A stretch of 64,000 bases of DNA from a bacterium (lineage in GTDB: Bacteria > Patescibacteriota > Patescibacteriia > SG8-24): the NCBI GenBank assembly GCA_021824285.1, contig JAKAKZ010000004.1:225-64224 (forward strand). Direction: 5' to 3'. The notes beneath the pieces were generated by a model. It did no database searches. It was given only the letters and a program-made list of their open reading frames with translations, and was not told the DNA's origin. A program made the position numbers and the translations under genes. Positions 6,616 through 54,100 of this stretch are shown piece after piece; position 1 is the first letter of the stretch, and every line of letters starts with the position of its first letter.

Positions 6616-6699
6616 TCAGTTATCCGATTCCGACTGGACGGCATATGGCGTATAATGCCATATGCCGTCTGCGTTTGGCGGCTAGTCCGCCTCACTGAC

Positions 6700-7053
6700 A
6701 TGAAACTTCCCGTCCGCAAAACCCTGGCCGTCGTGAGCGGCGCGCTGCTCACGGCCTCCCCGGCTTCGGCCGAGGTGCTGTTCACGGCCAATGCCCCAAC
6801 CGAGACCGTCGTCACCGGCATCCTCCGTTTTGCCCTGGCGCTGACGTCGCTGTTCCTCATGGTCGGCGTCGGTCAGGCCTGGCACCAGCTGCAAAACCAC
6901 GGCGGCAACGAGGAACGCAAGGCCGCGGCCCACGTCGCCTTCCGCGATGCGGTGCTTTTCTTCCTGCTGATCATCGCGGCCGGCTATGCCGTACCGTCGG
7001 CCGTGAACATCGCCTTCGCCGTGATCAATAACGGCGTCTCCATCAGCCTTTGA
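6700..7053 (+). CDS. TrbC/VirB2-like pilin family protein
   Basis: Signal peptide (MKLPVRKTLAVVSGALLTASPASA|EV), then two TM helices separated by a short charged loop, then a short tail. This is the VirB2/TrbC topology. The ORF opens at 6655, and the 6700 Met is the likelier start. The stop overlaps the dut start. Confidence 0.5.
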   Translation: MKLPVRKTLAVVSGALLTASPASAEVLFTANAPTETVVTGILRFALALTSLFLMVGVGQAWHQLQNHGGNEERKAAAHVAFRDAVLFFLLIIAAGYAVPSAVNIAFAVINNGVSISL

Positions 7054-29661: not shown

Positions 29662-29871
29662 AAACGGTGCCGTGCCTCCCGCACGACTGGGCCAGACGAC
29701 TGCTGGAAGCTCAATCTAGCAATAAATGCGGTGGCAGTCAACTATTGGCCGCGTGATCATTCAAGCATAAACATATCCACTTTACCCTTATGCCCCACCA
29801 TTTTATAATGAAAGGGTCTAAAATAAGGCTACTTGGCCTTATCCATATCTGCGGCGCTGGCCGCGAAAATT

Positions 29872-31490: not shown

Positions 31491-34061
31491 ATGGACATCC
31501 TCGACAAGTTCACTTCGCATCTCAAGAGCGTGCTGGCGAAATCCTATTCGCTGGCCGTGGAGGCCGGCTCATCCGACATCAACCCGGAGCATCTCCTGCT
31601 CTCCCTGCTGCTGCAGAAGGGCAGCCTTGGCGGCGAACTGCTCCGCAAGTCCGATGTCGGCGCGGAACCGGTCCGCGCCATGCTGGGGCGGCTGCGCGGC
31701 CTCGACCAGCCGGAAACGGCGACCCACGCGCACGCCCTGCCGAAACTCTCGCCGGACGCCAAGCGGGCCATCGAGAAGGCCGTGCTCACGGCCAACGTGC
31801 ACGAGCATAAATACGTCGGCACCGAGCACCTGCTCGCCGGGCTCCTGGACATCAATTCCCCGGCCATCGAGGCCATCATGAACGACCAGGACGTGGATAT
31901 CCTGAACCTCAAGGAGAAGGTCGAGGACAACCTGCGCGGCACGTCGCGGTTCCCGGAGATTACCGAGACTTTTGAGGCCGGCAAGGCCCCGCAGAAGGAC
32001 AAGGCCGAAGCGAAGGAGGAATCCAAACCGGCCAAGAAGCAGAAGGCCGCCGCCAAGGCCGCGCAGAAGACGCCCGCACTCGACTTCTTCGCCGTGGACA
32101 TGACCACGCCGGAATACCAGAAGAAGGTCGACCCGGTCATCGGCCGCGACAAGGAGATCGAGCGGCTGATCCAGATTCTCTGCCGCCGCACCAAGAACAA
32201 CCCGGCGCTCCTCGGCGAGCCGGGCGTAGGCAAGACCGCCATCGTGGAGGGACTGGCCAAGAAGATCGCGCAGGGCGAGGTGCCGGACGTGCTCACGGGC
32301 AAGCGCATCTACTCGCTGGACCTCGGCCTGATGCTCGCCGGCACCATCTACCGCGGCGAATTCGAGGGCCGTATCAAGCAGATTGTGGACGAGGTGAAAG
32401 CCGACCCGGACATCATCCTGTTCATCGACGAGCTGCACAACATCATGGGCGCCGGCGCCACTTCCGGCTCCATCGACGCCGCCAACCTGCTGAAGCCCGC
32501 CCTGGCGCGCGGTGAACTGCACTGCATCGGCGCGACGACCCTCAACGAATACAAGAAGCACATCGAGAACGACAGCGCGCTCGAGCGCCGCTTCCAGTCG
32601 ATAATCGTCGACCCGCCGACGCCGGAACACGCCGTCATCATCCTCAAGGGCGTGCGCAGCAACTACGAGCAGTACCACGGCGTGGAAATCAGCGACGAGG
32701 CCATCGAAGCCGCGGTCCAGCTCTCTGAACGCTACATGACCGACCGCTTCCTGCCGGACAAGGCCGTGGACCTGATTGATGAAGCCGCCGCCTGCGTGCG
32801 CGTCGCCCACTCCGCCGAGGCAGGCGCGCGCAAAATCGCGCTGGCCGAAGAGGAGCTGGAGAAGATCAACAAGAAGAAGCAGAAGGCCGTCTCCGGCGAG
32901 AACTTCATCGAGGCGCTGGACCTCAAAGCCCGCGAAAAGCAGCTGGAACACGAGATCGTCCGCCTGCGCCGCGAAGCCGCCTCCAAGGACAAGCCGAAGG
33001 TCGGCCGCATCGGTCGCGCTGACGTGGCGGCCGTCATCGCCCGGGCCACCGGCATCCCCGCCTCCGAGCTTCTCGCCACGGAAAAGGATCGCCTGCTCAA
33101 GATGGAGAAAATCCTCGGTGGCCGGCTCATCGGCCAGGACGAGGCCGTGGCCGCGGTCTCCGAGACCGTGCGCCGCGCCAAGACCGGCATCGGCCACCCG
33201 GGCCGCCCGCTCGCCTCTTTCCTGTTCGTCGGCCCCTCCGGCGTGGGCAAGACCGAGATGGCTAAACTCCTCGCCGAGACTGCCTTCCAGGACCCGCGCG
33301 CGCTAGTGCGCATCGACATGTCCGAGTTCTCCGAGGGCTTCAACATCTCGAAGCTCATCGGCGCGCCGGCGGGCTACGTCGGCTACAAGGAGGGCAACAA
33401 GTTCACGGATGTCATCAAGCGCAAGCCGCACTCCGTGGTGCTCTTCGACGAGATCGAGAAGGCACACCCGGATGTCCATAACCTGCTGCTGCAGATCCTC
33501 GAGGACGGCCACATCACGGACGCCACGGGCCGCAAGGTGGATTTCAAGCACACCATCATCGTCATGACCTCGAACGTCGGCGCCCAGCAGATGTCCGCAG
33601 GCAGCATCGGGTTCTCTTCGGCCGCCGATGGCGAGGTCAACGAAGAGCTGGCCGAGGAGATCAAGAGCCGCGCGCAGAAGGAGTTGGAGAGCGCCTTCCG
33701 GCCGGATTTCCTGAACCGCATAGACAAGGTGATCGCCTTCCGCCCGCTCGGCAAGTCCGACCTCGAGCAGATCGTCCGCCTGCAGATTGCGGATCTCGAC
33801 GGCCGCATCTCCCGCGACTACGGGGTGCATGTCAGCGTACAGGCGCCGGCCGTGGCCATCATCGCGGAGAAGGCCTGGAATCCCCTCTTCGGGGCGCGCG
33901 GCGTGCGCCGCCAGATCCAGGAGCTGGTCGAGAATCCGCTGGCCAAACGTCTGCTCGAAGACGACTGCGTCTCGGGCGACAGCTTCGTCCTGGGGGCGAA
34001 GAGCGGAGCTCTAGCGCTCGTAAAGAAACAGACCCATGCCCGCGCCGCAGCCGCCAATTGA
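31491..34061 (+). CDS. Clp/Hsp100 ATPase with two AAA+ modules, ClpC-type short middle domain
   Basis: Clp N-domain repeats, Walker A GEPGVGKT and GPSGVGKT, and a sensor arginine. The M-domain is about 60 aa, which is ClpC-like rather than ClpB-like. Confidence 0.9.
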
Positions 34062-34701
34062 ATTCCGACCGAAGCCGAAGCCGGTCTCTCCGACCGGCGC
34101 GGGAATAAGCGTCCCGGAACGCCCACGGGCTCAAGCCGCGGCGCCAGCGGCACCGGAGAATCAAGGCTACGTCGGGGAAGATGACGAGGAAGAGGCGGGG
34201 GAGCCGATGGAGGCCGGTGCCGAAGAGCCGGAAGATGTCGACGTGACCGATCTTTCGCAAATATCGCAGATTGCGGTCGGCGTCGGCTCCGGCGTGTTCT
34301 GGCGCTACGCGCTGGCCTATACGTCCTTTTTCATCATCCCGGCGGGAATCTTCTGGCTGGTCAACCTCGGTTCGAACCGCGACTTCATAACAAAATGCGG
34401 CCAACTCAAGCAGCTGAAGGATAAGCTGCCGACGGACCAGATCATCAAGCTCATTCCACCGCCCTACCAGCTGCTGGCCCGCGCCATTTCGCTGGCCATC
34501 GATATCGGACCGGGACCGCTCATCTTCGCGACCTGTCAGATTTCCGTGCTCCTCTCGGCTATGGGTATAGCCGTCCTGATGGTTTACGCGTTCTTCTTCT
34601 TTACGGTCGACTATTGCAAGGCCGCAAGTCACATCAATGAGTGCATCAGCATTTTCGGCTGGAAAGCGATGCTGAATATCCTTAAAGACATCTACGGCTA
34701 A
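34036..34701 (+). CDS. hypothetical 4-TM membrane protein with acidic N-terminal region
   Basis: 221 aa. The start is uncertain and a downstream Met (MEAGAEEPEDV...) would avoid the overlap with clp. Confidence 0.45.
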   Translation: MPAPQPPIEFRPKPKPVSPTGAGISVPERPRAQAAAPAAPENQGYVGEDDEEEAGEPMEAGAEEPEDVDVTDLSQISQIAVGVGSGVFWRYALAYTSFFIIPAGIFWLVNLGSNRDFITKCGQLKQLKDKLPTDQIIKLIPPPYQLLARAISLAIDIGPGPLIFATCQISVLLSAMGIAVLMVYAFFFFTVDYCKAASHINECISIFGWKAMLNILKDIYG

Positions 34702-34736
34702 GCCCGCCGTCACCAAATGCCCTTAGCGCCTCGCCT

Positions 34737-35978
34737 ATGAACCTGAAACGCGTCGCCATCATCGCCCTATTCATCTTGGCCGTCGTGCTCGGCGGACTGG
34801 TGCTATACCGGATTTTTTTCCGGCCGCTCCTCACCATCCAACCGCCCGCTCCGGGAGCCGAAAACACCGTGAACGGCGGCGGGTTGCAGCCCTCCGTGAA
34901 CGGCCGGCCAGTGACGGTGCCGACCAACGTCAACGCGCGGCCGACGACACCGCCGCCCGTGACGCCGACGCGACCGGCCGTCTCCCCCACCGCACAGGGC
35001 GGCGTAACGGCCGTAACCCAACTCGAAACGGCACCGACGGTCGGCGCGACGCTCGCTGCGGACGGTACGCTGCGCTTCTACAATAAAGATGACGGCAAAT
35101 TCTACCGGCTGAACGCCGACGGCACCATGTCGACCATCTCCAATAAGACTTTCTTCAACGTCAGTGCCGCGACCTTCAACCCGCAGGGCAGCGGCGTCAT
35201 CCTGGAATACCCTGACCGCACCAAGTTCTTCTACGACTTCAACGCCAACCGCCAATACACGATCCCCCAACACTGGGAGCAGTTCCAGTTCAGCCCGGGC
35301 GGCGACAAGATCGAGACGAAAAGCATGACCTTAGACGCGGAAAACCGCTACCTGGTCATCTCCAACCCCGACGGCTCCGGCGCCAAGGCGATTCAGGAGC
35401 TGGGCAACAATGCGGACAAGGTGGCGCTGGCCTGGTCACCGAACAACCAGATCGTCGCCACTGCGGCCACGGGCACCAACCAGGGGCTCGGCCGCACGGA
35501 AGTCTACTTCGTCGGACAGAACAACGAGAATTTCAAGTCCATGATGGTCGAGGGCATCGACTTCCGGCCCCAGTGGTCTCCGACGGGCAACAACATGCTC
35601 TACAGCGTGACCGGTCCGCTCACGGATTGGCGGCCGACGCTCTGGGTAGTCGACGCGAGCGGCCAGAACGTCGGGTCCGGCCGCCGGATGCTCAACCTCA
35701 ACACCTGGGCCGACAAATGCAGTTTCGCGGGCGGCACCACCCTTTACTGCGCCGTACCGCAGACGCTCGAGCGCGGCGCCGGCCTCCAGCCTGACGTCGC
35801 CGATACCACTCCGGACGACATCTACCGCGTCGATCTCACGACCGGCACCCAGACCAAGATCGCCACGCCGGAGGGCGACCACACCGTGGACAAACTGATG
35901 CCCTCATCCGACGGCCAATATCTCTTCTTCACGGACCGGGGTTCGGGATTGATCAACAAGATCAAACTCGCACCGTAA
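34737..35978 (+). CDS. membrane-anchored beta-propeller (TolB/PD40-like) protein
   Basis: N-terminal TM, a Pro/Thr-rich linker, then repeated DG..I/..Y.. blade-like segments (PDGSGAKAI, SPNNQIVA, SPTGNNMLYS, SSDGQYLFFTD). Confidence 0.55.
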   Translation: MNLKRVAIIALFILAVVLGGLVLYRIFFRPLLTIQPPAPGAENTVNGGGLQPSVNGRPVTVPTNVNARPTTPPPVTPTRPAVSPTAQGGVTAVTQLETAPTVGATLAADGTLRFYNKDDGKFYRLNADGTMSTISNKTFFNVSAATFNPQGSGVILEYPDRTKFFYDFNANRQYTIPQHWEQFQFSPGGDKIETKSMTLDAENRYLVISNPDGSGAKAIQELGNNADKVALAWSPNNQIVATAATGTNQGLGRTEVYFVGQNNENFKSMMVEGIDFRPQWSPTGNNMLYSVTGPLTDWRPTLWVVDASGQNVGSGRRMLNLNTWADKCSFAGGTTLYCAVPQTLERGAGLQPDVADTTPDDIYRVDLTTGTQTKIATPEGDHTVDKLMPSSDGQYLFFTDRGSGLINKIKLAP

Positions 35979-35981
35979 GCT

Positions 35982-36671
35982 ATGCGCACCTCACCTGCCG
36001 TTCCGGCCATCATCGGACTCGCGGCACTGACCGTGCTTTTGGTCTTCGGAATCACGGCCTATTCCGACTACAAGGCGGTCACGCCCGCGCCGACGCCGGC
36101 CACGGCCGACGGCACCGGCAACGCCGAGCAGAAAGCGCCGAAAATCGACTTTGCCAACCCCTCCATCGGCCCGACCGATGCGCCCTTGACCATCGTCGTC
36201 TACGGGGACTATCTTTGCGGCGCCTGCGGCGACCAGGAAAAAACGCTCCTCGAAACGCTCAAGGAATTCAGCGGCAAATTCCGGCTGGTCTGGAAGGATC
36301 TGCCGAATGAAACCGCCCATCCCGGCGCGGGCGCCATGGCCGAAGCGGCACGATGCGCCGGCTTGCAGGGGCAGTTCTGGTCCATGCATGATCGCCTATT
36401 CGCTAACCAGGATACGCTCAACGGATCCTCCCTGCCGGCCTTGGCCGAAGGGCTGAACATGGATACGAACGCCTTCCAGTCTTGCGTGACTGACCGCAGC
36501 GCCAAACCGCTGATCGACCGCGATGTCGAAGAGGCGGTGGCCCTCAAAATAGATGCGACACCATACATGTTCGTCGGCACCCGCCGCATCTCCGGCGCCA
36601 TGGGGGCAGCCGAGCTGAAGACGGTGATCGCGGCGCAGCTGGAGGCAGCGACGCCAAAGGCCAAGCCATAA
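35982..36671 (+). CDS. DsbA-like thiol:disulfide oxidoreductase
   Basis: N-terminal TM anchor and a thioredoxin fold with CGAC active site (YGDYLCGACGD). Confidence 0.75.
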   Translation: MRTSPAVPAIIGLAALTVLLVFGITAYSDYKAVTPAPTPATADGTGNAEQKAPKIDFANPSIGPTDAPLTIVVYGDYLCGACGDQEKTLLETLKEFSGKFRLVWKDLPNETAHPGAGAMAEAARCAGLQGQFWSMHDRLFANQDTLNGSSLPALAEGLNMDTNAFQSCVTDRSAKPLIDRDVEEAVALKIDATPYMFVGTRRISGAMGAAELKTVIAAQLEAATPKAKP

Positions 36672-36687
36672 TCGCCACAACCAACCT

Positions 36688-38016
36688 ATGACCATTGCCA
36701 GCCACCGCCGTTCGACCAAACGCCTGCGCCCGCTCGCCGCCACCTTGGCGCTCAGCGCCGTTCTGGCGTTCACCGTGGCCCCGGTAGCCGGCTTCGCCCA
36801 GCAGGTTGATCGCTACGGCAACGACATGGGTGCGCAATACGCCGGCCAACCTTACAACGAACCGAACGCCACGACGGCCTATTCTTTTAGTCTTGGAGAG
36901 GATTGTGGCCTGCTGAACGTCGGGTATTCCTGCAACGCCAACACGAAATATTTCAAATGCAGGCCGAAAGACGGCGGCGCGACTTGCCAAGACATAAGTC
37001 CGGCCAAACAGCAGCCAGCCACACCGGAACCGGAGCAGATCCTGCCGAACCTATCCATACCGATTCCCGACCTGACGTTCAGCAACGCGGTAATCGCGAC
37101 CCAGGACGGGCAGGCCGGCATCCAAATCAACTGGATCGCCCAATGGATCCAGGCCGTCTACCGCTTCGGCATCGGTGTCGCGACCGTGCTTGCGGCCGTC
37201 ATGATGATGATCGGCGGCATCCAGTGGCTGACGGCCGGCGGCGACGCCAGCAAGGTCTCTGCGGCCAAAGAGAAGATCAGCGATGCGGTCATGGGCCTGG
37301 CGCTCTCGCTCGGCGTCTTCCTTATCCTGTCGCTCATCAATCCGGATATCCTGAACCTGAACTCGCTGTTTGTCAGCAAAGTCCCGGCCGACACGGTGGA
37401 CTCGCCCTTCAGCGGCACCATGACCGGCGCCAATGCCGCGAACTGCGCGGAGGCCGTAAAGGCGGCCCAAGCAGCGAAGTGCGCCTTCGCTGAGGGCATC
37501 GTCCCGGCATCGCCGGGCAGCTCGCTGGCCTGCAATTACCATTTCAGTACGCTGAACTATGACTACACGAAGATAAACATGGTGGACTACACTGGCAACT
37601 GGGGCTCCGTCATCACCGCGCCCATCAACGGAACAGTCAAATACACCAAAGCCGACGGCATCTGCGGCAATTCCATCAGGGTCATAAACAGCAACGGCTA
37701 CATTACCATCTGCCACGCGAAAGACTTCATCGGCGAGGATGGCAAGCAGCTGGCGAACGGGACCGCCGTCACGCAGGGCACTCCCCTTGGTCACGTCGGG
37801 GGCCGCTGCTGCAGCGGTGAGACCGTGCCCTCGAGCTGGACTCACCCGAATGCCGGCAGTTGGTGCCACTTCGACGGCCGCGCCTGCAACGATCCCAGTT
37901 CGGCGGAAAGCTGCGAATGCCAGACCTCGGCCCAATCCGGGCAGACCTCCGGCCCGCACCTGCATTTGACCTATCGGGGCTCGACTGGTTATCTGCTGTC
38001 CTGCATCAAGCAATAA
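36688..38016 (+). CDS. fusion protein: VirB2/TrbC-like pilin module plus C-terminal M23 (LytM) peptidase domain
   Basis: Signal peptide, a Cys-rich segment, and two TM helices around a short loop (IGGIQWLTAGGDASKV...VMGLALSLGVFLILSLINPDIL). The C-terminus carries HxxxD (ICHAKD) and HxH (GPHLHLT) M23 signatures. Confidence 0.6.
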   Translation: MTIASHRRSTKRLRPLAATLALSAVLAFTVAPVAGFAQQVDRYGNDMGAQYAGQPYNEPNATTAYSFSLGEDCGLLNVGYSCNANTKYFKCRPKDGGATCQDISPAKQQPATPEPEQILPNLSIPIPDLTFSNAVIATQDGQAGIQINWIAQWIQAVYRFGIGVATVLAAVMMMIGGIQWLTAGGDASKVSAAKEKISDAVMGLALSLGVFLILSLINPDILNLNSLFVSKVPADTVDSPFSGTMTGANAANCAEAVKAAQAAKCAFAEGIVPASPGSSLACNYHFSTLNYDYTKINMVDYTGNWGSVITAPINGTVKYTKADGICGNSIRVINSNGYITICHAKDFIGEDGKQLANGTAVTQGTPLGHVGGRCCSGETVPSSWTHPNAGSWCHFDGRACNDPSSAESCECQTSAQSGQTSGPHLHLTYRGSTGYLLSCIKQ

Positions 38017-44489: not shown

Positions 44490-45245
44490 CTATCGGCCTA
44501 AACCTGGGCCGCCGCGCAAGACGGCCAAGGCGTACACTTGGCGCGCTCCTGCGGTTTTAAGCGCTGCGGCGCAGTCGTTCAAGGTAGCCCCGGAAGTTAG
44601 GACGTCGTCCACCAACAGGCAGGATGGGGGGACGCTCTGGCCAAGCCGCGCGGCAAAACTGCCGGCCCGCAGGCGGCGGCGATCAGCTTCGGGCGTGGCG
44701 GCCTGCCGCCGCAAAGAGAAGCGGCGGCGCAGCAATCCCACCTCGCATTCGGTGCCGAAATGCTCTGCAAAGGCGCGGGCCAGAACCGCCGCCTGATTGA
44801 AGCCGCGCAGGGCCAGGCGATACGGATGGAGCGGCACCGGCACGGCGACCGCCAGGGGCGCCAGTCCACGCCAGAACGGCGATGAATCCCAAGCTGCGCG
44901 GCAGAGGCCAAGAAGGGCACGGCCTTCCGCGAGGCCACCCTCGTACTTCCAGCGGCGCAGCAGCGTGCCCAGCGCCGGTTCCGCGTACGAACCAAGATAC
45001 ACGGCCCCATCGAGCGGCGACTTTCCGCACAAGCGCCGACCGCAGCGGCCGAGCAGCGCCGTATGCCGACCGCAGCCGGGACAAACAAAAACGGCCGCCA
45101 GGCGGCCGCTGATCTTGGCTCGACACCCGTCGCACATGACCGGCCCTTCGGAACCGCAACCGGAACAGCGGTCAGGAAAGACCGCCGCGAGTACCGTCCT
45201 CAATAATTCCTTTTCTCTCCCCAATCCACGGAATCCGTCTTCCAT
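44490..45245 (-). CDS. comF: ComF-family protein (competence, phosphoribosyltransferase domain)
   Basis: N-terminal Cys4 zinc finger (CSGCG...CDGC...CPGCG) and the PRTase motif LLVDDVLTSGATL. Confidence 0.8.
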   Translation of the reverse strand: MEDGFRGLGREKELLRTVLAAVFPDRCSGCGSEGPVMCDGCRAKISGRLAAVFVCPGCGRHTALLGRCGRRLCGKSPLDGAVYLGSYAEPALGTLLRRWKYEGGLAEGRALLGLCRAAWDSSPFWRGLAPLAVAVPVPLHPYRLALRGFNQAAVLARAFAEHFGTECEVGLLRRRFSLRRQAATPEADRRRLRAGSFAARLGQSVPPSCLLVDDVLTSGATLNDCAAALKTAGARQVYALAVLRGGPGLGR

Positions 45246-45847
45246 ACGCCATCGGCTAACTTCATGACAAGTGCGGCATCCTGATAAAACAGCGAGGCAG
45301 TGCCGTCGGCCAGCGATTCGCGGCGCTGTGTCGTGACTGTGGCCTTGGCGATACCTCCGTCCTTATCGAACAGCTGAAACTGGACCGACAGGGCCCTGGT
45401 CGTGACGCCGTAGAATTCGGCGTTGACCGCCGACCGCTCCTTCTGCGCCGCCACGTAGGCGTCAGTCTTGGAAGCCAGTCCGGAAGTCATAAGCGGCTTC
45501 AGGTCGAGCAGGTTGGAGTAATCAGCAGTGTTCGAGAAACTGCCGTAACGTTCGACGAAAGCCATGGCCAGACGGCGGGCATCGGCCCGCTCGTCCACCG
45601 TAACGGCCGGCTGGGCCGGCTGCGGTTGGGGCTGCGGCTTGGGGGCAGGCGTGATATCCGTGACCGTGCCGCCGGCCGCGCCCCCGCTCGACGGCAAAGC
45701 CGCCGTACCGCCCTGTTCGGACGGTGCCGGCACGTTGACCGTTTCCGGAGCCTGTTGGGTCTGCCGCAAAAGCAGCAGCGCCAAAGCCGCCAGCAGCAGC
45801 AGGACGACGACGGCAATCCCGATTTTCTGACCGCGACTTAATGCCAT
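45200..45847 (-). CDS. membrane-anchored protein with PQPQPQP linker, possible VirB8/TcpC-like NTF2-fold periplasmic domain
   Basis: 215 aa with N-terminal TM (IGIAVVVLLLLAALALLLL). The VirB8-like assignment comes from position and topology only. It overlaps comF by 46 nt. Confidence 0.45.
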   Translation of the reverse strand: MALSRGQKIGIAVVVLLLLAALALLLLRQTQQAPETVNVPAPSEQGGTAALPSSGGAAGGTVTDITPAPKPQPQPQPAQPAVTVDERADARRLAMAFVERYGSFSNTADYSNLLDLKPLMTSGLASKTDAYVAAQKERSAVNAEFYGVTTRALSVQFQLFDKDGGIAKATVTTQRRESLADGTASLFYQDAALVMKLADGVWKTDSVDWGEKRNY

Positions 45848-45901
45848 ATGCGTACGCTCCGCCGCTTCTTACATCCGCTGCCGGTCGGCGTCAAATCAAG
45901 C

Positions 45902-47797
45902 TCAGGTCTTCATTTCCTTGGCCCGTTGGGCGGCCTCAAACTCCTTCTTGGCCTGCTCGATTTCCAGTAGCTGCTGCGGGTTCGTGGTGACGACCTGGTC
46001 CTCGGCATAGGAGGCCACGACCTTGATGGCCGCGTGCTTCATGCCGGCGAAGAATATGCCCTCGCCCACCCCGCCCTCAAGCAACAGGTATTTCTCCCCC
46101 TCGGTCAGCATGAAGGTCTTGGCGATGTTGTCGATAGCCGCCGGCGACTGCTTCAGAAGCAGCTGCATGGCGGAGTTGGTCACGATGGCCTGGCCGTAAG
46201 GCGAGCGCAGGAAGTCGTTGACGTCCTGGGTGATGGTCGTCACGCCGAGATAGTATTTGCGGCAGCGCTTCACGAGCGCGAAGATAAACTTGGCGGAGTC
46301 CTCGTGCTGCATGAGCCACCAGGCCTCATCAATCACCAGGATGCGTTTCTTGCGCTCGGAGCGGACCACGTTCCAGATGTAGTTGACGATGGCGTAGACC
46401 GCGAGCGGGCGCAGCTCGTCCTCCAGGTCACGGACCGAGAAGACGACGAGGAGGTTCTGCATGGCCACGGTGGTCGGCGAGTTGAACAGGCCGGAGAACG
46501 TGCCCTCGGTGAACTTCTTGAGCTTGATGACGATGTCCTTCGTGCCTTCCATTCCCTCCAGAACCTCAATGAAGTCCTGCATGATCGGCGGCTCGACGCG
46601 GGCCAGGTCGGCGTCCGGCGTGATGTCCTTCTTGGCGTAGGTTTCGAGCAGGGCGCGGTCCAGCACGGAGTCCTCTTGCGGCGTGATCGTGCCGAGCATG
46701 ATGCGCAGCAGGCCCTTTACCGTGATGACCGCGCTGCGGATGATATCCTCGACCGAAACCTCCTCCCCCACCGGCCGCGGCAGGTCGAACGGGTTGATCT
46801 TGGCGTCGGAGGCCAACGAGATGTTGATGTAGGTCCCGCCGACCGCGTCGGACAGGTGTTTGTATTCCATTTCCGGGTCGATGACGATGACCTCGGTGCC
46901 CATCATGAGCGAGCGCAGGATCTCCAGCTTCACGGTGTAGGATTTGCCCGCGCCGGAAGTGGCGAACACGATATAATTCGCGTTCTGCATGGAGAACCGG
47001 TCGAACAGGATCAGACTGTTGTTGTGGCGGTTGATGCCGAAAAGGATGCCGTTGTCCGAGGTCAGGTCCGCCGAGATGAACGGAAACGAGGAGGCGCACG
47101 GCGACGAGTTCATGTTGTAGGTGATCATGAGCTCGTCGTTGCCGAGCGGAATCGTGGAATTGAATCCCTGCTCCGCGGTGTAGAAAACGCGCTTGGTGTA
47201 GATCAGCTTGCCGCCGAAAATGGACTCAACGTCCTCGCTCAGCTTGTCGAGGGCCTTCTTGTCCTTGGCGTAGACCGTGACGTAGAGGGCAAACTGGAAG
47301 AAGTGCTCCGTGCCCTGGGTCAGGCTGTCGCGGAGGTCCTCGACGTCGCGCAGGGCCTGCTCGGAAATCGGGTCGCGCGGCTTGCCCTTCTCGGCATCTG
47401 AAAGGATGGTCGCCTCGAGCACGCCGGCTTTCTTCTTGAGCTGTTTCAGGATGACGGGCGCCTTCACCGGATAGAAGAACATGGCCACGTCCAGCGGGTA
47501 GTTCATGTTAATCACCGGCGAGAACCAGCCCAGCGAGATGTAGCGGGGATATGTGACCACGAAGATGGTGCGCAGGAAGGTCTCGCCGAGCTGGACGAGC
47601 GTCGGGTCGACTTTCATGCCCGCCGGCGCGATGAGGTCACGAATGGAGACGACGCCCTTGCGGTAGACGCGCTCCTCCTCCAGGAGCTCGCGCTCGCGCG
47701 AGATCTTTTCGGTCTCCTGCCGCTTCTTCACCTCTGCCGCCGTGTCCTTCTTCGGAGGCGGCGCGACAGCTCCTAATTGTGCGGGATTGAAGGCCAT
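45902..47797 (-). CDS. virB4: VirB4/TrbE-family T4SS ATPase, C-terminal 631 aa (Gram-positive PrgJ/TcpF type)
   Basis: Walker A FATSGAGKSYTV, Walker B RILVIDEAWWLM, and the conserved GETFLRTIFVVTYPRYI block. Confidence 0.85.
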   Translation of the reverse strand: MAFNPAQLGAVAPPPKKDTAAEVKKRQETEKISRERELLEEERVYRKGVVSIRDLIAPAGMKVDPTLVQLGETFLRTIFVVTYPRYISLGWFSPVINMNYPLDVAMFFYPVKAPVILKQLKKKAGVLEATILSDAEKGKPRDPISEQALRDVEDLRDSLTQGTEHFFQFALYVTVYAKDKKALDKLSEDVESIFGGKLIYTKRVFYTAEQGFNSTIPLGNDELMITYNMNSSPCASSFPFISADLTSDNGILFGINRHNNSLILFDRFSMQNANYIVFATSGAGKSYTVKLEILRSLMMGTEVIVIDPEMEYKHLSDAVGGTYINISLASDAKINPFDLPRPVGEEVSVEDIIRSAVITVKGLLRIMLGTITPQEDSVLDRALLETYAKKDITPDADLARVEPPIMQDFIEVLEGMEGTKDIVIKLKKFTEGTFSGLFNSPTTVAMQNLLVVFSVRDLEDELRPLAVYAIVNYIWNVVRSERKKRILVIDEAWWLMQHEDSAKFIFALVKRCRKYYLGVTTITQDVNDFLRSPYGQAIVTNSAMQLLLKQSPAAIDNIAKTFMLTEGEKYLLLEGGVGEGIFFAGMKHAAIKVVASYAEDQVVTTNPQQLLEIEQAKKEFEAAQRAKEMKT

Positions 47798-47800
47798 ACG

Positions 47801-48502
47801 TCAGATTTCGGTACCGGAATCGGTGACCCGGAGCTTGCCGGGGTCCTGGATCTTCTGCGTGTCGTAGGAATCAGGATTGTAGACGCGGTAATACAGCTCG
47901 ATGAGGCCCTGGGTGTCGAGCGTCACGGCCGACAGGCCCATGCTGCGGAGCGAGCCGACCATGCGGTCGGCGCGGGTCATGAGATCGCCGCGCTGGCGCT
48001 GGAAGCGCTCCTCGGCCAGACGCACCGCGGCGCCGGGCATGAAAGCGGCCTGCAGGCGCTCGAAGAAGCTCTTCTGCCGGTCGGAAAGCGGATTGTACTG
48101 CACGACGACGAAAAACTGCTTCTGCATGATCTGGCCGAGCGACACGAGTTCCTGCACGAAGGCGCGATAGTCGGCGATCTGCACCTTGAGCAGCTCGTTG
48201 GACTGGGACTTTTCCTGCTCGCGCAGGCGATCAATGTACTTGTCGATGTTCAGGCGCCGCGACTGCACGACAATCTGCAGCGGAAACTCCAGCGAGTTCA
48301 GAAAGGCGACGTACTGCGCGATGATGGCGTTCTGCTCGTCTTCCGACTTGAGCGCAAAATTAATGGAGGACACGAGCATCACGGCGCGCATGGTACCGTC
48401 CTTGAGCACCACCACGCCCTCCTTGATTTCGGCGATGTCCAAGTAGCGCTGGGTGGCAGCGCCCGGTTTCGTGCCGGCAAGTTGCGGTGACTGCATGTCC
48501 AT
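47801..48502 (-). CDS. VirB4 N-terminal region (233 aa), in the same reading frame as the ATPase ORF and separated from it only by TGA plus one codon
   Basis: The block KDGTMRAVMLVSSINFALKSEDEQNAIIAQYVAFLNSLEFPLQIVVQ resembles the N-terminus of Gram-positive conjugative VirB4 ATPases. The stop at 47801-47803 is in frame with the ATG at 47795-47797. Confidence 0.55.
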   Translation of the reverse strand: MDMQSPQLAGTKPGAATQRYLDIAEIKEGVVVLKDGTMRAVMLVSSINFALKSEDEQNAIIAQYVAFLNSLEFPLQIVVQSRRLNIDKYIDRLREQEKSQSNELLKVQIADYRAFVQELVSLGQIMQKQFFVVVQYNPLSDRQKSFFERLQAAFMPGAAVRLAEERFQRQRGDLMTRADRMVGSLRSMGLSAVTLDTQGLIELYYRVYNPDSYDTQKIQDPGKLRVTDSGTEI

Positions 48503-48503
48503 A

Positions 48504-48929
48504 TCACTCTTCGGGGTTGAACACGCCGCCGGTGTTTACGACGAGCGACAGCTCGGCGAGTTTGGACGCGGCCAGGGCCTCCTTCACGATCTTGGGCTTG
48601 GGCGGCGGCGGTGGTGTCTCGCGGACGAAAGCCAGGACTTCGGCGTCGGTCGGTTCCTTATTCCAGACGCGCAATCCGGGCCGACGCGTGGTGAGAATCA
48701 GGTTGAGGACGAAATAATGGAAGGCCTGGCCGTTAATGCGCGTGAAGGCGAAAACGCTGAAGAGTATGAAGGTCGGGATACCGACGAGCAGGAACAGCGC
48801 GAAATCGAACATCTTGTAATACGCGAACTCCAGGCCCAGCATGGCCAATTCAATAAGGAACTGACGGGCCGTCAGCGGACCAAGAATCTTGTCCTCGGTA
48901 TCGATGAATTGGGGAACGGCGTATTTCAT
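48504..48929 (-). CDS. VirB3/PrgI/TcpE-like small 2-TM protein
   Basis: 141 aa with two adjacent TM helices after EDKILGPLTARQFL and a Pro-rich tail. It sits immediately upstream of VirB4, as in Gram-positive T4SS operons. Confidence 0.4.
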   Translation of the reverse strand: MKYAVPQFIDTEDKILGPLTARQFLIELAMLGLEFAYYKMFDFALFLLVGIPTFILFSVFAFTRINGQAFHYFVLNLILTTRRPGLRVWNKEPTDAEVLAFVRETPPPPPKPKIVKEALAASKLAELSLVVNTGGVFNPEE

Positions 48930-49052
48930 CGGCTGGTCTCTACCTTACGTACATTTTTAACGCACAAAACCACGGCTATGAGGACCGTTTTAGCCTATTT
49001 TTAGGTTTATTTTAGGCTAATCAAGTATACCACGACCGGGGTGTGGACATCA

Positions 49053-51110
49053 TCAGCCGAAACGGAGCGTCCGATTCAGGGTCATGATGGCATCGAACTG
49101 CGGTTTGCTGAGGTTGGGCTGCTTGGCGGCCTCGCGCGCGGCAATCACATCCAGCACCGGCTTGCCCTCGAGACTGGCGCGAAGCAGCTCCAGATACAGA
49201 CGGTTGACTTCGGACTCGTGCCAGGCCTTTATCCCCTGCTGTTTTACCTCAAAGCCCTGATCCTCGAGCAAGTCGATCTTATCCTTGATCTTGAGCGTGG
49301 CCTCCGTCGGTTCCTTGGAGAGCCGGATGAAGTCCGCAAGCGTCATGGAGCGAAGTTCCTCGACCGGACCGGTGAGGCGCGGGGCCGCGATGATGTCGGC
49401 AACTATCGGTTTCTGCGTGGCGACTGGCTGGACCGGCGGTGCGGGCGGGCGCTGGGGCACGGAAACATAGCCCGGACCAGAAACGTGGGGCGCGGACGGT
49501 CCGCTCGTCGGCAGGTTCATCGGCGGCGCGGCCGTGGCGGTCGGCGGTTGCGGCGGTTCCGGCCTGGGGGCGGACGGCGGAGCCGGCTTGGCCGGCGGCG
49601 CTGGCGGCACAGCTGGCTTTGGCGCCGGCGGCGGCGTCAGAGGTGCGCTCGGCGGAACTGGAGGCTTCGGGGCCGCGGGGGCGGCGGTCGGAGCCGATTG
49701 GCCCACGGACGGTTGCTTCATGGCCGGGCCGGTGAGGTCCGGCAAGACCGGCTCTGGTTTCGGCGGCGGTGCGGCCGGGACGGCAGGACGCGGCGGAGCT
49801 GCCGCAGCGACAGCGGCTGACGGAGCTGCGGGCCTGGGGGCCGCGACAACCGGTACGGTGACCGGTGCGGAGGGAGCTTTCGGTGCCGGAGTCGGTGCGC
49901 TCCCCGGCGGCATCTGGATACCGGAACGCTGGACCAGATCCTGGTAGCGACGGTCTAGATCCTGCTTCTCCAGACGCTCGGTGCGCTCCTGCTGGAGCAG
50001 ATGGCGGCGCGCCTGTTCGGCTACGAATTTCTCCTTGTCCGCCGCGACCTGGCCGACGGCCTGCGACAGGAACTGCTGGCGCAGCGGCTTAAGCGCGGTC
50101 ATGACGCGGTCGGCGTCTGCCTCGGATAGGCCCAAGCCGCCAGTGGCGACCTGCGAAGTAAGTTTGGATTTCGTCTCCAGCGCGTCGCGCAGGTCGCGCA
50201 GATAAAGCGCGGATGCCATGCGAAAACGGTTGAGCGACTCTGGCGTCGGGCTTGGCAAGGCGGCCGCCTGCACGGCCCGTTCGACGAAGAAATCGAGGTC
50301 GCCGGCCGGCTCGGCGGCAGGCTCCATCGTCCTGCGCAAGGCCTCAACCTCCTTGATGTCCTCGACCTGGACTGTTTCGAAGGTGGGGACAGTGGGGAGG
50401 TTTGGAGGTTTGGAGGTTTGGAGGTTTGGAGTGGCCGTCGGCGCTTCCGCAATCGGAGGGATGACGACGGGTTTCGGTTTTTCGGCGGCCAGCACCTCAT
50501 CGGGAACGACGACGATCGCCCTCGCCTCAAGCGCCTTCATCTCCTCTTCCGCAGCCGCGACAACAAGCGCGGCCTCATCGCCGTTCAAACCAACGCCCGA
50601 CGTCTTCGCCGGACCCATGAGCGTCTCCGCCAGCTGTTCCACCTTGCGGCCGCCGAGGGCCACGGAGGCCAGAACCTTATCAAGGCGGCGGTCCAGGATG
50701 TCGTCGGAAACGACCACGCCGGACTTGCGGCGGATGACCGCGACGACGTCCGATGCCGCGACCTTCTTTTTGAAGATGTTAGGGTCGCCGCCTTCCTGCA
50801 GGATGAGAGCGGGGATGTCGGAATTCAGCCAATCCGCGATGTCCTGAAAATCATAGCCGAGTATCTTTTGGGCCACGTCAGGATAGCGGCCGTTCCCCTT
50901 GAGCAGGTCGCGCAGGAAGGCGAGGAAGGAGGACGGGGTAGTGACGCGGAAATAAACGTCAAACAGGGCCTCGGCGACGGCGAAGCGCTGACCCTCGTCG
51001 ATCAGCGGGAAAATTTCCTCGGCGTACCGCTCAGCCAACTGGGCGTCGAAAATGTGCGCCCGAACCTGGTCGGGCAGGCCACGGAGCTGTTCAAGTGAGT
51101 ATTTCGGCAT
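49053..51110 (-). CDS. hypothetical 685-aa protein with central Pro/Ala-rich low-complexity region
   Basis: No TM. Globular N- and C-terminal regions. It contains an in-frame copy of the family-B repeat encoding PNLQTSKPPNLP. Confidence 0.6.
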   Translation of the reverse strand: MPKYSLEQLRGLPDQVRAHIFDAQLAERYAEEIFPLIDEGQRFAVAEALFDVYFRVTTPSSFLAFLRDLLKGNGRYPDVAQKILGYDFQDIADWLNSDIPALILQEGGDPNIFKKKVAASDVVAVIRRKSGVVVSDDILDRRLDKVLASVALGGRKVEQLAETLMGPAKTSGVGLNGDEAALVVAAAEEEMKALEARAIVVVPDEVLAAEKPKPVVIPPIAEAPTATPNLQTSKPPNLPTVPTFETVQVEDIKEVEALRRTMEPAAEPAGDLDFFVERAVQAAALPSPTPESLNRFRMASALYLRDLRDALETKSKLTSQVATGGLGLSEADADRVMTALKPLRQQFLSQAVGQVAADKEKFVAEQARRHLLQQERTERLEKQDLDRRYQDLVQRSGIQMPPGSAPTPAPKAPSAPVTVPVVAAPRPAAPSAAVAAAAPPRPAVPAAPPPKPEPVLPDLTGPAMKQPSVGQSAPTAAPAAPKPPVPPSAPLTPPPAPKPAVPPAPPAKPAPPSAPRPEPPQPPTATAAPPMNLPTSGPSAPHVSGPGYVSVPQRPPAPPVQPVATQKPIVADIIAAPRLTGPVEELRSMTLADFIRLSKEPTEATLKIKDKIDLLEDQGFEVKQQGIKAWHESEVNRLYLELLRASLEGKPVLDVIAAREAAKQPNLSKPQFDAIMTLNRTLRFG
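50394..50423. repeat. family-B repeat unit (ggaggtttggag x3) embedded in frame inside the CDS
   Basis: Same unit as the intergenic 27831-27913 element. Confidence 0.5.
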
Positions 51111-51135
51111 GATATATGGCCGTTAGACCATGGTC

Positions 51136-54100
51136 CTAGCGACCGAGCTTCCGTTCGATGGCGTCGAGCAGGCGGGTGACTTGGGACTTGTCCGATTGGG
51201 ATGAATCCTTGAGCTTGTCGACCAGACCCTCGAGCGCCGAGGTCTGATCAGCGCCGGCATCGTTGATCGCCTCAATCAGCTTGTCGAAATTCTCGGGGGT
51301 GGGCCGGACACTGACATCATCCAGCGCATCTTTCACGGCTCCAGAAACGGATTCGGCGACGCCGGAGAAGGCCCGCTCGATCTCCTTCTTGTCGATCCAG
51401 TCGCGGCCGCCGCGACCGCCCGACGAATCAGAACCGTAGGACCTTGGCGCTTCCGTCGGCCGGGCACCCGGACCGCCCATCTCTTTGAGCCGCGCGCTGG
51501 CGGCCTTCAGGTCTTCAGTGGCTTGCCGCAAGGCTTCGGTTAGTGCTTCTAGTGTCTGCGGATTGGCACCGCCAGTCTTGGCTTTGTCATATTCCTGCTG
51601 GGCCTGCTGGGCCTTATCACCGGCCTTCTTCACCACATCCTGCTGCATACCCGCCTCGGTGGCGTCGAACTTGGGCATCTTGTAGCCGCGCCGGGCAAGA
51701 ATCTCCTCGATCTTTCCGATATTGTCGGCGGCTTCCTGACGCTCCTTATCGATCCGTTCCAGATCGCGTTTCTTCTGAAGTTCACCGCCGTTATAGTCGA
51801 AACTCGGCGTCGCCTGGATGCTGTCGCGCTCCGCGCCGAGCGAGAGGACTTTCGACTTCGCCTCGTCAGCATTCTTGAAGGCGTCCTGCGTTTCGCGCTC
51901 GACGCGCTTACGGTCCTTGACCCCGGACTCCCCGCCTTTCTCGGACACGATCTGCATCACCGGATTATTGATGGAGCGGCTCAAGTCGCGGTTGGCCTCG
52001 GCCCAGCCGCCTTTGATGGCGTCGGTTACCGCTTTGAGAAGCGCCGACTCGTTGGCCGATGCGGTGCCGCTCGCGGACTTCTCGGCCAAGCCGAGCAGGG
52101 CACCGCCTTTCATGCCGTCGATCAGCGCCTGCATGGCCTCCGTCGGCTCCCCGTCCTTGGTCAAGGACGATGCGTCAATCTTGGAAAGGGCCTCCGGGCC
52201 GTTGGACTTCACGAATTCCTGAAACGCAGCCTTGCCGAATTCGCTGCCGAACTGGCCTCCGGCGCCAAGGTCGAAGGCCTTGGCCGCACCGGCGGCATCT
52301 TCAGCCGTGCGGGCCACGGCCTGCCGCGCGTGCAGCGATTCCTCGGGGTGCTCGGCTATGTACTTCTCGTTCTCCTCGCGGTAGGCCTTTTTCTGCTTGC
52401 CTTCCAGCTTGGATTCGACGCGGTCGGCGTCATCCCGGAGGGCCACGTCATTGGCGTATTTGCGGATCTGCGCCTCGGTAAAGTCCTTGGGCTGCTGTTT
52501 GCCCTCACGCACCTCGCGGGCCATCTTGGAAGAGAGCTCCTGCAGCTTGTCCTCGAGAGTCTCCCCTTCTTTCAGGGCTGCCGGATCAAACGCCTCATCC
52601 GGGAAGTTCTTCTTGGCTGCCTCAACCGCGTCATCGACGGTTTTCTTGTCGGCGCCAGCTTCCTTCATGCGGCGGATGACCTCATGCGCGCCGCCGGCGT
52701 CATGGACTTTGGCGTTGCGCTTCTCCAGGGCCTGCTTGAGCGCGGCCACGCGTTCCACCTCGGTGAATTCCGCGGCGCGGCCGGTGAGGATGGCCTCGAT
52801 GCTGTCTTTGCTGAGCTCCTTCTGGGCCTTGGCGTAGATGCCGGCCTGACCTTCCTTGCCGGTCTGCTGAAGCTGACGACCGATGCGCCGGCCTTCAGCT
52901 GCGGCCTCTTGGCCGGATTTCACGATGCCGGCGCCGAGACGGCCGCCGGTGACGCCCTGGACAGCGCGGCCGGCTGCCTGACGCAGGCCGCCACGGAGCA
53001 ACGGCGTGACCCCCTCGCGGGCCTTACCGATTTTCTCGGTGTACTGCGCCGTAGTCAGGGCGATGCGCTCCTTGTAGCGGTCATCGCCGGCCTTCATCAT
53101 GGCGCCGACGGCACCGCGCGCGCCTTCCACGCGCTGACGCAGACCGGTCCGCTTGTATATCGCGCCGAGGGCTCCGCCGACGACGGCACCAGGCGCGAGC
53201 TTCTTGGCCCCCGGCAGGCCGCCGCCGAAGCCGCCGCCGCTAAGCTGCTGCGCGAAATCCACGCCCAGATACATGATGGCCAGCGCCATGATGAAACTGA
53301 GCAACGAATCCATTTTCATGAAGTTCGTCCGGAAGACAGCGTCCGCTCCCGATTCCGCATTGAACTGCAGCTGCTTGACGGTGGCCAACGACAGCCAGAG
53401 GAAAAAAGCCAGCACCGGACCGGTGAGGATCTGGGACTGGAGGTTGGACCACCACTTGCCATAGTAGGACTGCGTAGCCTTGAAGGGCATGCCGCGCATG
53501 GCGAAGGCCAGAGGCGAAAAGATGACCACGCCCCAAAGAACGACGATGCGCTTGAGGATGAAGAGCGTCATGATGAGGATGACGCCGCAGGCCGCGAGCA
53601 GGAACAGGCAGGTCGCGAAATAGGTCAGGAACATCGTAAAGGTAGTCTGGGCAGCGGAGAGAGTCAGTCCGGTGCTGTCCGGGCTCATGACGTTCATCTG
53701 CGTGGTGTTCAGCGACGTGATGAGGTTCTGTGCGGCCGCGCCCTTGAAGCCGTTCACGAAAGTCAGCATGACCACCTGACCGATATCGATCAGCACACCG
53801 ACGAAAGTCCGCGAAAAATTCACGAGAATCGCCATGATCAGCAGACGCGAGAGCTTCTTCCCCTTATAGCTGTATTCGTCCATGCCGAGAATCGTCGCGA
53901 ATGCCATCACAAGCATGCTGACCACGATGAGCATGTTGGCCATGTCACGCACGACGAGCCAGCCGGCGGTGACGACGGGATTGTTCACGAAGCTGTTGTA
54001 CTGGATGAAGAAAATCAGCAGTTCGATAAGCAGCGACAGGATCTGGCCGATGGCGAAGGCCAAGGCCTCGAAAACCCAGTAGATGAAGCTCTGGATGAAA

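Follow-up and report, generated by a model that had tools for sequence, protein, structure and literature searches.

Type IV secretion systems (T4SSs) of Patescibacteria, their PF18895/VirB2-like pilins and the arrays in which these pilins are encoded have been described (PMC12102498, PMC12857230, PMC10633639), and no T4SS before the Patescibacterial one had been shown to be essential to the growth of its owner (PMC12857230, citing Wang et al. 2023). In S. epibionticum, epibiotic growth requires the T4SS together with its pilins, and neither a relaxase nor a coupling protein was recognised (PMC10633639). Six short PF18895 pilins (SEML1_0014-0019) in the T4SS cluster are essential, as are two genes that adjoin VirB4, SEML1_0006 (lysozyme-like and cysteine protease) and SEML1_0007 (M15B/M23-like); two of the PF18895 pilins also match PF04956, at about 1e-6 (PMC10633639). 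In the survey of Quinonero-Coronel et al., which gives PF18895 matches without domain context, most Patescibacteria with VirB2 had no detectable VirB1, and pilus biogenesis seems to be VirB1-independent (PMC12102498). Here we analyse a 64,000-nucleotide stretch of contig JAKAKZ010000004.1 from a bacterium of the Patescibacterial lineage SG8-24 (hereafter the window) and, within it, the gene at 36688-38016 on the + strand. Its 442-aa product consists of a signal peptide, a T4SS-pilin hairpin and an M23 domain with all catalytic-type residues.

The closest enzymes of monoderm T4SSs are PrgK (pCF10), TraG (pIP501), CwlT (ICEBs1) and TcpG (pCW3). They are membrane-anchored, exoplasmic peptidoglycan hydrolases, as the 442-aa protein is predicted to be; they work for a T4SS, a service that the fusion would presumably share. 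They are built from a simple N-terminal transmembrane (TM) or signal anchor and an SLT or muramidase domain combined with CHAP or NlpC/P60, and PrgK contains a LytM domain. The fusion differs from them by its single M23 head, its non-canonical H(x)14D spacing and its Cys-rich insertion. To our knowledge, none of the four has been reported fused to a VirB2-type pilin.

Architecture of the pilin::M23 fusion

Four co-oriented open reading frames (ORFs) occupy positions 34036-38016 of the + strand with intergenic gaps of 35, 3 and 16 nt. All four were also called independently on the 68-kb source contig, in agreement with a first-pass annotation that had been made from the letters of the window and had described them as one envelope module. 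The last of them is the pilin::M23 fusion gene. Its product starts with a predicted signal peptide (aa 1-37, 36688-36798) that has a hydrophobic core at aa 13-37 and ends with ...AGFA|QQ, the cleavage site being predicted from the sequence. The following variable, presumably exoplasmic segment (36799-37041) contains four Cys (C73, C82, C91 and C100) and is of varying length in the family, with a median of 86 aa ahead of the module. The T4SS_pilin-type module itself covers aa 119-232 (37042-37383), as indicated by PF18895, hhalign and AlphaFold2 (AF2). A linker with conserved C253 and C265 and with low to medium predicted local distance difference test (pLDDT) values (aa 233-269, 37384-37494) leads to the M23/LytM metallopeptidase domain (aa 270-442, 37495-38013), which was found with Pfam, Foldseek and a PDB profile. 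The catalytic-type residues of this domain are H285 (37540-37542), D300 (37585-37587), H343 (37714-37716) and H424/H426 (37957-37965). Both the Pfam and the PDB alignments are interrupted by a 49-aa Cys-rich insertion (aa 373-421, 37804-37950), which lies between the 'GhvGG' strand and GPHLH. All these elements are encoded on the + strand.

Hydropathy analysis gave the signal-peptide segment (aa 13-37) and two TM helices at about aa 158-182 and 198-218, the latter in accord with the two-TM module of the first-pass annotation. The two helices are connected by the short basic loop GGDASKVSAAKEK. In the most probable orientation this loop is cytoplasmic, and the N-terminal segment and the M23 domain are both outside; the domain is predicted to be exoplasmic because it lies C-terminal to the second TM segment. 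The protein contains 16 Cys, none of them in the TM hairpin and 12 in the C-terminal part.

A protein identical to the fusion is present on 6 contigs from several samples, and full-length relatives at 32-45% identity occur in the same context in independent assemblies. To compare gene contexts, 79 GTDB loci (designated by L-numbers) were surveyed, of which 64 carry fusions. Among GTDB genomes, a Candidatus Uhrbacteria metagenome-assembled genome (L007) encodes the closest full-length relative (40% identity). Altogether, the pilin::M23 architecture recurs with the same gene context in 9 distinct M23-type relatives, recurrence being one of the checks named in the first-pass annotation.

The module belongs to the T4SS_pilin family

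The 442-aa protein alone scored 20.1 bits against PF18895 (T4SS_pilin, aa 149-210), under the cut-off of 26.6 bits, and did not match PF04956 (TrbC) at E<=1. The pilin had been assigned to TrbC; that family name has to be replaced by PF18895, itself sub-cut-off for this protein alone. Its relatives are more informative: PF18895 was matched by 95 of the 100 closest ones (E <= 0.001, whole-protein E-value; best 1.8e-25) and, at the same threshold, by 80 of the 85 fusion ORFs from GTDB loci, one of which also matched PF04956. Weak PF04956 matches were obtained with two relatives of the fusion (2.9e-5 and 5e-3). When aa 115-235 were used in an exhaustive phmmer search, 19,080 cluster representatives were found at E<=1e-3, of which 3,940 still passed E<=1e-10; the best 150 relatives are nearly all 300-650 aa long.

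The module was also compared with 23 short stand-alone pilins (116-154 aa) from Saccharimonadia, Kerfeld-, Woese- and Pacebacteria loci. hhalign gave 98.9% (E 1.6e-17) for this module and 99.3% (E 7.5e-21) for a profile of the fusion modules. By way of the relatives and of this comparison with stand-alone Patescibacterial pilins, the homology of the module to pilins can be taken as secure, and the fusion of a VirB2-type pilin module to an M23 domain, already noted in the first reading, is borne out. Kinship to VirB2/TraA is suggested by the Pfam family, by the weak PF04956 matches of relatives and by those of the S. epibionticum PF18895 pilins.

An AF2 model computed from a deep alignment for aa 115-235 (pLDDT 91-98) contains a beta-hairpin (135-147), a first helix (149-182), a loop (183-186), a second helix (187-217) and a strand (227-230). 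Conserved features are an LSIPIPxLxFS motif region at aa 122-132 and the GGDASK loop between the helices; the loop motif GGDxxK is common to fusions and stand-alone pilins. With the Patescibacterial PF18895 pilins (SEML1_0014-0019), the fusion thus shares the phylum, a homologous two-helix hairpin, the GGD-x-x-K loop and a signal peptide with two TM segments, and some members of both groups adjoin VirB4. It differs from them in many other respects: the known pilins are stand-alone, Cys-poor proteins of 100-185 aa encoded in sequence-divergent arrays inside the T4SS cluster, whereas the fusion has 442 aa, extra conserved beta elements, a Cys-rich enzymatic head and a DsbA partner, and is encoded about 8 kb from VirB4.

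Three further observations concern pilin-like sequences. Multiple pilin modules were found in 18 of 235 sequences; P0010, P0011, P0012, P0110 and P0123, with 3-6 tandem modules in polypeptides of 555-891 aa, are concatenated pilins and not enzyme fusions. Between rplA and dut, the window also contains an ORF of 132 aa (6655-7053, +) whose product combines a signal peptide with two TM helices and a 'GGNEERK' loop. This product may be a VirB2-like pilin of the stand-alone kind; its scores are weak (module hidden Markov model E 0.048; hhalign against the short pilins 47%, E 1.9e-4) and it has no Pfam match. Finally, the short pilin ORF L066:9824-10237 (Kerfeldbacteria) contains an in-frame stop near the C-terminus, inside the aligned region, and is possibly a pseudogene or the product of a wrong ORF extension.

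The M23 domain and its active site

Against PF01551 (Peptidase_M23), the 442-aa protein reached 28.1 bits (aa 299-373), just under the cut-off of 28.7 bits, while relatives pass it (best 2.8e-11). The peptidase assignment made earlier therefore missed the Pfam threshold on the protein itself and was upheld by the relatives' scores and by the fold. A first AF2 model, made from a 4-sequence alignment, was poor overall but reached pLDDT 65-88 over aa 250-442. In Foldseek searches with the AF2 model, the top 30+ PDB matches were all M23/LytM proteins (best E 2.6e-5, probability 1.00), including Csd1/2, ShyA, LytM, lysostaphin and EnpA. When a 5-sequence profile of the M23 domain was run against the PDB, zoocin A (7.5e-7) and about 30 further M23 chains were retrieved, with D300, H343 (the zoocin A 'aHLs' position) and GPHLH (H424, H426) aligned. 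By these matches, the M23/LytM fold of the domain is confirmed.

Two strings, ICHAKD at aa 341 and GPHLHLT at aa 422, had been proposed as the M23 motifs. The HxH of GPHLHLT aligns as expected; ICHAKD is not HxxxD and, judging by the alignments, holds the third catalytic His (H343). The canonical position of the first His, 4 residues before D300, is taken by Ile296, and H285 lies 15 residues upstream of D300, giving a spacing of H285(x)14D300. Five residues, H285, D300, H343, H424 and H426, are invariant in the 9 distinct M23-type fusions, together with seven Cys (C265, C326, C342, C375, C400, C411 and C439). In the M23 motif H(x)nD, n is variable, with n=12 in LasA and n=7 in gp13 (PMC9662197). 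Because H285 is invariant and n varies among M23 enzymes, H285(x)14D300 is probably the first motif, with H285 as a putative zinc ligand in a region that has low confidence in both AF2 models. When the M23 profile was aligned to a LasA sequence with hhalign, only the core was aligned (probability 89%) and the first His was not reached. We consider the domain a candidate active zinc endopeptidase.

Compared with the M23B enzymes LytM, lysostaphin and zoocin A and with the M23A enzymes LasA and beta-lytic protease, the fold, the Asp, the third His and the HxH are alike, and the long H(x)nD spacing resembles that of LasA (n=12). The fusion differs from known M23 enzymes in having n=14 (up to 24 in one relative), the 49-aa Cys-rich insertion before HxH, seven invariant Cys among the 12 of aa 247-442, and a pilin hairpin in front.

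A polymorphic family of pilin-hydrolase fusions

The module defines a very large Patescibacterial family in which a conserved pilin handle is joined to interchangeable peptidoglycan-hydrolase heads. Close full-length matches of the query share only the module (about 50% identity) and carry other heads. Among the 100 nearest relatives, the heads are Peptidase_C39_2 (13), VanY (10), SLT (6), Peptidase_M15 (6), C70 (6), Amidase_2 (5), glucosaminidase (4), M23 (3) and NlpC/P60 (1); the 85 GTDB fusions carry M15_4, VanY, C39_2, 3D, glucosaminidase, SLT, M23, Amidase_2 and PG_binding_1, and many fusion heads are not recognised by Pfam. In an all-against-all BLAST, 206 heads fell into 44 clusters; M23-type heads make up one of these, with 6 members (about 3%). 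The heads are rich in Cys (median 10, 4.5% of residues, at least 4 Cys in 95% of them), as compared to about 0.26 Cys in the module.

When the whole protein was compared by tblastn with 72,556 plasmids and 50,697 phage records, no match was obtained; therefore, at BLAST sensitivity, the family is not a known plasmid or phage function. Topic searches of the full-text literature found no description of pilin-hydrolase fusions, and fusion architectures are already visible as precomputed Pfam pairs in a protein database. The combination of a conserved N-terminal handle with variable C-terminal heads, many of them targeting peptidoglycan, recalls polymorphic toxins and the wall-degrading effectors of antibacterial T4SSs and type VI secretion systems. 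Unlike such toxins, the fusions have no adjacent immunity genes, their handle is an integral-membrane pilin module and not a soluble secretion signal, and their loci are chromosomal, syntenic and vertically conserved.

Pilin fusions were also present in many GTDB records titled 'uncultured Gammaproteobacteria', 'Binatia', 'Acutalibacteraceae' or 'Vicinamibacterales' (L010, L011, L013, L014, L016, L017, L018, L022 and others). Several of them, such as L013, L014 and L016-L018, show the same LemA-HtpX-ClpC...RadA synteny with 50-75% protein identity, and the titles are probably wrong or the contigs mis-binned. Long forms are also encoded in Saccharimonadia loci such as L063 and L083.

Fusion genes follow DsbA in a conserved chromosomal slot

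Directly upstream of the fusion gene, positions 35982-36671 (+) encode a 229-aa protein with an N-terminal TM segment and a CGAC motif at aa 79-82 (36216-36227). It matched Thioredoxin_4 at 1.1e-21 (78.2 bits, cut-off 23.2) and DSBA at 1.5e-9. On these matches it is classed as a membrane-anchored DsbA-like thiol-disulfide oxidoreductase; a DsbA-like gene had also been seen here in the first reading. The pairing of the two genes is not particular to the window. In 45 of the 59 fusion loci that could be evaluated, a DsbA homologue lies 5' of the pilin module and ends no more than 1 kb from it, as compared to 1 of 16 loci with short pilins only, and the pairing persists in many loci without any other syntenic gene. 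In view of this pairing and of the Cys-rich heads, the idea that DsbA fits a Cys-rich partner is well supported.

In L001 the gene order is PGM, LemA, HtpX, ClpC, a 239-aa gene, beta-propeller, DsbA, pilin::SLT-like, pilin::VanY, RadA and RecG. All four additional M23-type fusions from metagenomes were found in the order beta-propeller, DsbA, fusion, RadA. Across the survey, one, two, three and four fusions follow DsbA in 46, 13, 4 and 1 loci, respectively. These data show that the conserved slot between DsbA and RadA is filled by one to four fusions. Fusions in tandem differ in their enzyme, as in L017 (Amidase_2 and 3D) and in L018 (VanY and unrecognised heads).

T4SS genes in the window and in other fusion loci

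The window contains a Patescibacteria-type T4SS core on the - strand (45200-54384), identified by Pfam matches and TM counts. It comprises ORF215 (45200-45847), the 631-aa ATPase VirB4 (45902-47797), a 233-aa TrsD/TraC-like N-domain protein (47801-48502), PrgI/VirB3 (48504-48929), ORF685 (within 45200-54384) and the polytopic ORF1082 (1082 aa, 51136-54384), which has at least 8 TM segments and is a VirB6-like candidate. The VirB4 function is thus split between the 233-aa protein and the 631-aa ATPase, as in the TrsD + VirB4 arrangement reported in Patescibacteria. Together with ORF1082, a gene for a secreted protein of 2935 aa (54627-63434, -) lies upstream of PrgI-TrsD-VirB4. This giant protein has 130 Cys (4.4%) and a weak CBM_4_9 match, and it is likely to be another client of DsbA. 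On the other side, a ComF-like gene (44490-45245, -), whose product has 12 Cys, a double zinc ribbon and a phosphoribosyltransferase domain, shares about 46 nt with the end of ORF215 and is located directly downstream of the T4SS core.

The fusion would resemble SEML1_0006 and SEML1_0007 in that these, too, are wall hydrolases genetically tied to a Patescibacterial T4SS. The latter are large separate proteins (643 and 1113 aa) for which no PF18895 module is recorded in the published table (PMC10633639). Their position 3' of VirB4 is without a hydrolase in the window, being occupied by ORF215 and then by the ComF-like gene.

Coupling of fusions to T4SS genes is occasional but real. In L037, PrgI, TrsD, VirB4, ORF215, a long pilin, beta-propeller, DsbA, pilin::SLT and RadA form one co-directional run. 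A similar run is seen in L023 (PrgI, TrsD, VirB4, ORF215, long pilin, beta-propeller, pilin::VanY), where a DsbA match is absent, and in L050 beta-propeller and DsbA follow the single long pilin proximal to VirB4. The link to a T4SS apparatus, drawn in the first-pass annotation, has support from this comparison: in these three loci the VirB4 cluster is in the same locus and co-oriented, and over the whole survey such proximity is rare, as detailed below.

The long pilins encoded directly after VirB4-ORF215 constitute a second class, of 320-430 aa, whose C-terminal domains are not recognised by Pfam. Members are L037:6626-7756, L050:6252-7541, L023:5979-6944, L052:9938-11158 and L065:9791-10984. 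In the window ORF215 is followed by no long pilin, and the ComF-like gene is found there instead.

Proposed role and alternative explanations

We propose that the protein is exported by the Sec pathway and that, after removal of the signal peptide, the VirB2-type module would sit in the membrane as a hairpin. The membrane-anchored DsbA, whose gene ends 16 nt before that of the fusion, would presumably oxidise the 12 Cys of the C-terminal part. The pilin hairpin would place the hydrolase at the site of T4SS or pilus assembly, where it would cut peptide cross-links and open the wall locally for a channel or pilus. The job of VirB1, PrgK, TraG and CwlT would then be done by a pilin-fused enzyme rather than by a separately encoded one. 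In this proposal we infer the enzymatic activity, the dependence on disulfides, the docking to a T4SS and whichever wall, own or host, is cut. Such a pilin-tethered cell-wall hydrolase with a VirB1-like role is the reading that we favour, at a confidence evenly poised between acceptance and doubt, because the fusion joins functions that S. epibionticum assigns to distinct, neighbouring and essential genes and because sister fusions carry SLT, the classical VirB1 enzyme. As the position by VirB4 holds only ORF215 and then the ComF-like gene, the pilin-fused M23 could supply the hydrolase activity that is missing next to VirB4 in the window.

Several observations weigh against this proposal. The T4SS genes of the window lie about 8 kb from the fusion on the opposite strand, with RadA, RecG and other genes between them, and VirB4 is found within 10 kb of a fusion in only 8 of 64 loci. 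The fusions sit among housekeeping genes such as ClpC and RadA, a setting that would also fit a general autolysin, and the polymorphism of the heads (44 clusters for 206 heads) would sooner be expected of effectors than of an assembly factor. On its own, the 442-aa protein is under the Pfam cut-offs for both domains. The 'pilin' label denotes a family assignment; when the module was compared with the PDB, no solved pilin was matched by the sequence profile or by Foldseek, for which a bare helical hairpin is uninformative. Finally, the role of H285 is deduced for a segment with low pLDDT in both models.

The polymorphism leads to a host-directed explanation, in which the module would be extracted from the membrane to become a minor or tip subunit of the T4SS pilus and the disulfide-stabilised head, carried to the host cell, would digest the host wall at contact, so that head swapping would track the wall chemistry of the host. 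We think this possible, though rather unlikely. It agrees with the conservation of the handle (about 50% identity) next to heads of so many clusters, with arrays of 1-4 different enzymes per slot, and with the finding that closely syntenic genomes differ in their head (M23 here and in L007, SLT-like and VanY in L001). The GGDxxK loop, common with stand-alone pilins, is compatible with co-assembly; Cys-rich, DsbA-dependent domains are typical of proteins working outside the cell; and epibiotic growth of S. epibionticum depends on its T4SS and pilins, with no relaxase or coupling protein recognised (PMC10633639). Conversely, immunity-like genes are absent, only 12 nt separating the fusion gene from RadA and fusions in tandem lying back to back, and a head of about 200 aa per subunit would be sterically hard to accommodate in a helical pilus. 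A bolder form of the same idea, which we hold with slightly greater reserve, is that the VirB2-type module is the assembly handle of polymorphic wall-degrading heads on or at the tip of a T4SS pilus, acting as an 'enzymatic drill' through the host wall. If this were true, the swaps between M23, VanY, SLT, amidase, glucosaminidase, C39-like and other heads would track host wall chemotypes and DsbA would harden the heads. It would also explain the apparent lack of VirB1 in most VirB2-bearing Patescibacteria and a T4SS that is essential for epibiosis without recognisable DNA-transfer components.

The chromosomal setting suggests another explanation, namely that the fusions are housekeeping autolysins that remodel the cell's own wall during growth and division and have no T4SS role, the pilin-derived hairpin being a mere membrane anchor that was recruited once and then inherited. 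The conserved position among core genes (LemA, HtpX, ClpC ... RadA, RecG) in many genomes and the rarity of VirB4 within 10 kb speak for it, and M23, amidase, glucosaminidase and lytic transglycosylase are the standard toolkit of division and elongation (PMC9662197 and established knowledge). Yet about 50% identity over a module of 115 aa, with a conserved loop and conserved flanking beta elements, would be superfluous in a plain anchor; it is unusual for close relatives to exchange housekeeping hydrolases at one slot; and module genes are contiguous with VirB4 in several genomes. We judge this explanation improbable. Far less credible still is a catalytically dead LytM-type regulator which, like EnvC, NlpD, DipM or SpoIIQ, would recruit or activate another hydrolase. 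Ile296 at the place of the canonical HxxxD His and the slightly sub-cut-off Pfam score could be read in this way, and degenerate M23 domains are common (PMC9662197); but D300, H343, H424 and H426 and the upstream H285 are invariant in 9 of 9 relatives, and the H(x)nD spacing is known to vary (PMC9662197). That the fusion is an artefact, a mis-assembly or frameshift having merged two distinct genes for a small pilin and an M23 protein, deserves almost no credence: the idea arises only from the metagenomic source of the contig, nothing was found in its favour, and the identical protein on 6 contigs, the relatives in independent assemblies and hundreds of similar fusions contradict it. An assembly chimera was rejected on the recurrence of the architecture in relatives, and a prophage endolysin/holin context was rejected because phage genes are absent nearby.

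Across the family, the pilin module is fused to wall hydrolases of all major classes. Under the favoured VirB1-like reading, a hydrolase that travels with the pilin would be a concrete answer to the question of the 'missing VirB1', in a group whose pilins are an oddity among monoderm systems. The fusion would be a "Rosetta-stone" link between pilins and wall hydrolases, which are separate, co-clustered and essential in S. epibionticum. The family further offers a tight pairing of genes for DsbA and its presumed substrate in minimal-genome organisms and a collection of compact peptidoglycan hydrolases, presumably stabilised by disulfides, in which the active-site residues are unusually spaced. 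A T4SS pilin, a T4SS-associated wall hydrolase and an M23 peptidase are each already known. The value lies more in the family revealed than in the single gene, and the family also bears on how the essential Patescibacterial T4SS deals with cell walls.

Other genes of the block and of the window

The first gene of the block, ORF221 (34036-34701, +), encodes a predicted membrane protein of 221 aa with an acidic N-terminal region and two hydrophobic segments, for which no match was found in Pfam or NCBIfam. It showed no detectable similarity to the 239-aa gene in the same slot of L001 (5893-6609). Because this interval between ClpC and the beta-propeller gene is filled in syntenic loci without similarity, while the flanking genes are 53-68% identical, it appears to be the place of a very fast-evolving membrane-protein gene.

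The second gene (34737-35978, +) encodes a 413-aa beta-propeller-like protein, predicted to be exoplasmic with an N-terminal TM anchor. Its matches to PD40 (1.2e-3, 19.2 bits, cut-off 20.9) and TolB (1.6e-5) are both sub-cut-off, and neither phmmer nor a 23-sequence profile gave informative matches in the PDB. PD40 was matched by 11 of 23 orthologues (best 5.3e-7), and orthologues with 35-56% identity are encoded just 5' of DsbA in 25 loci. The 413-aa protein is thus probably a PD40/TolB-like beta-propeller, and the association of its gene with those for DsbA and the fusions is conserved; the beta-propeller of the first-pass annotation is weakly supported by the scores of the protein itself and better by those of its orthologues.

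The window is chromosomal, from a GC-rich genome (about 62%), and contains the core genes NusG, L11, L1, DnaE, PheST, RseP, MurI, GlmM, LemA, HtpX, ClpC, RadA and RecG. ClpC overlaps the first ORF of the block, and RadA begins 12 nt past the stop codon of the fusion gene. The best promoter-like site (29781-29809) is located 5' of LemA and the run is without a strong + strand terminator, suggesting that the four genes may be part of a long LemA-to-RadA transcription unit.

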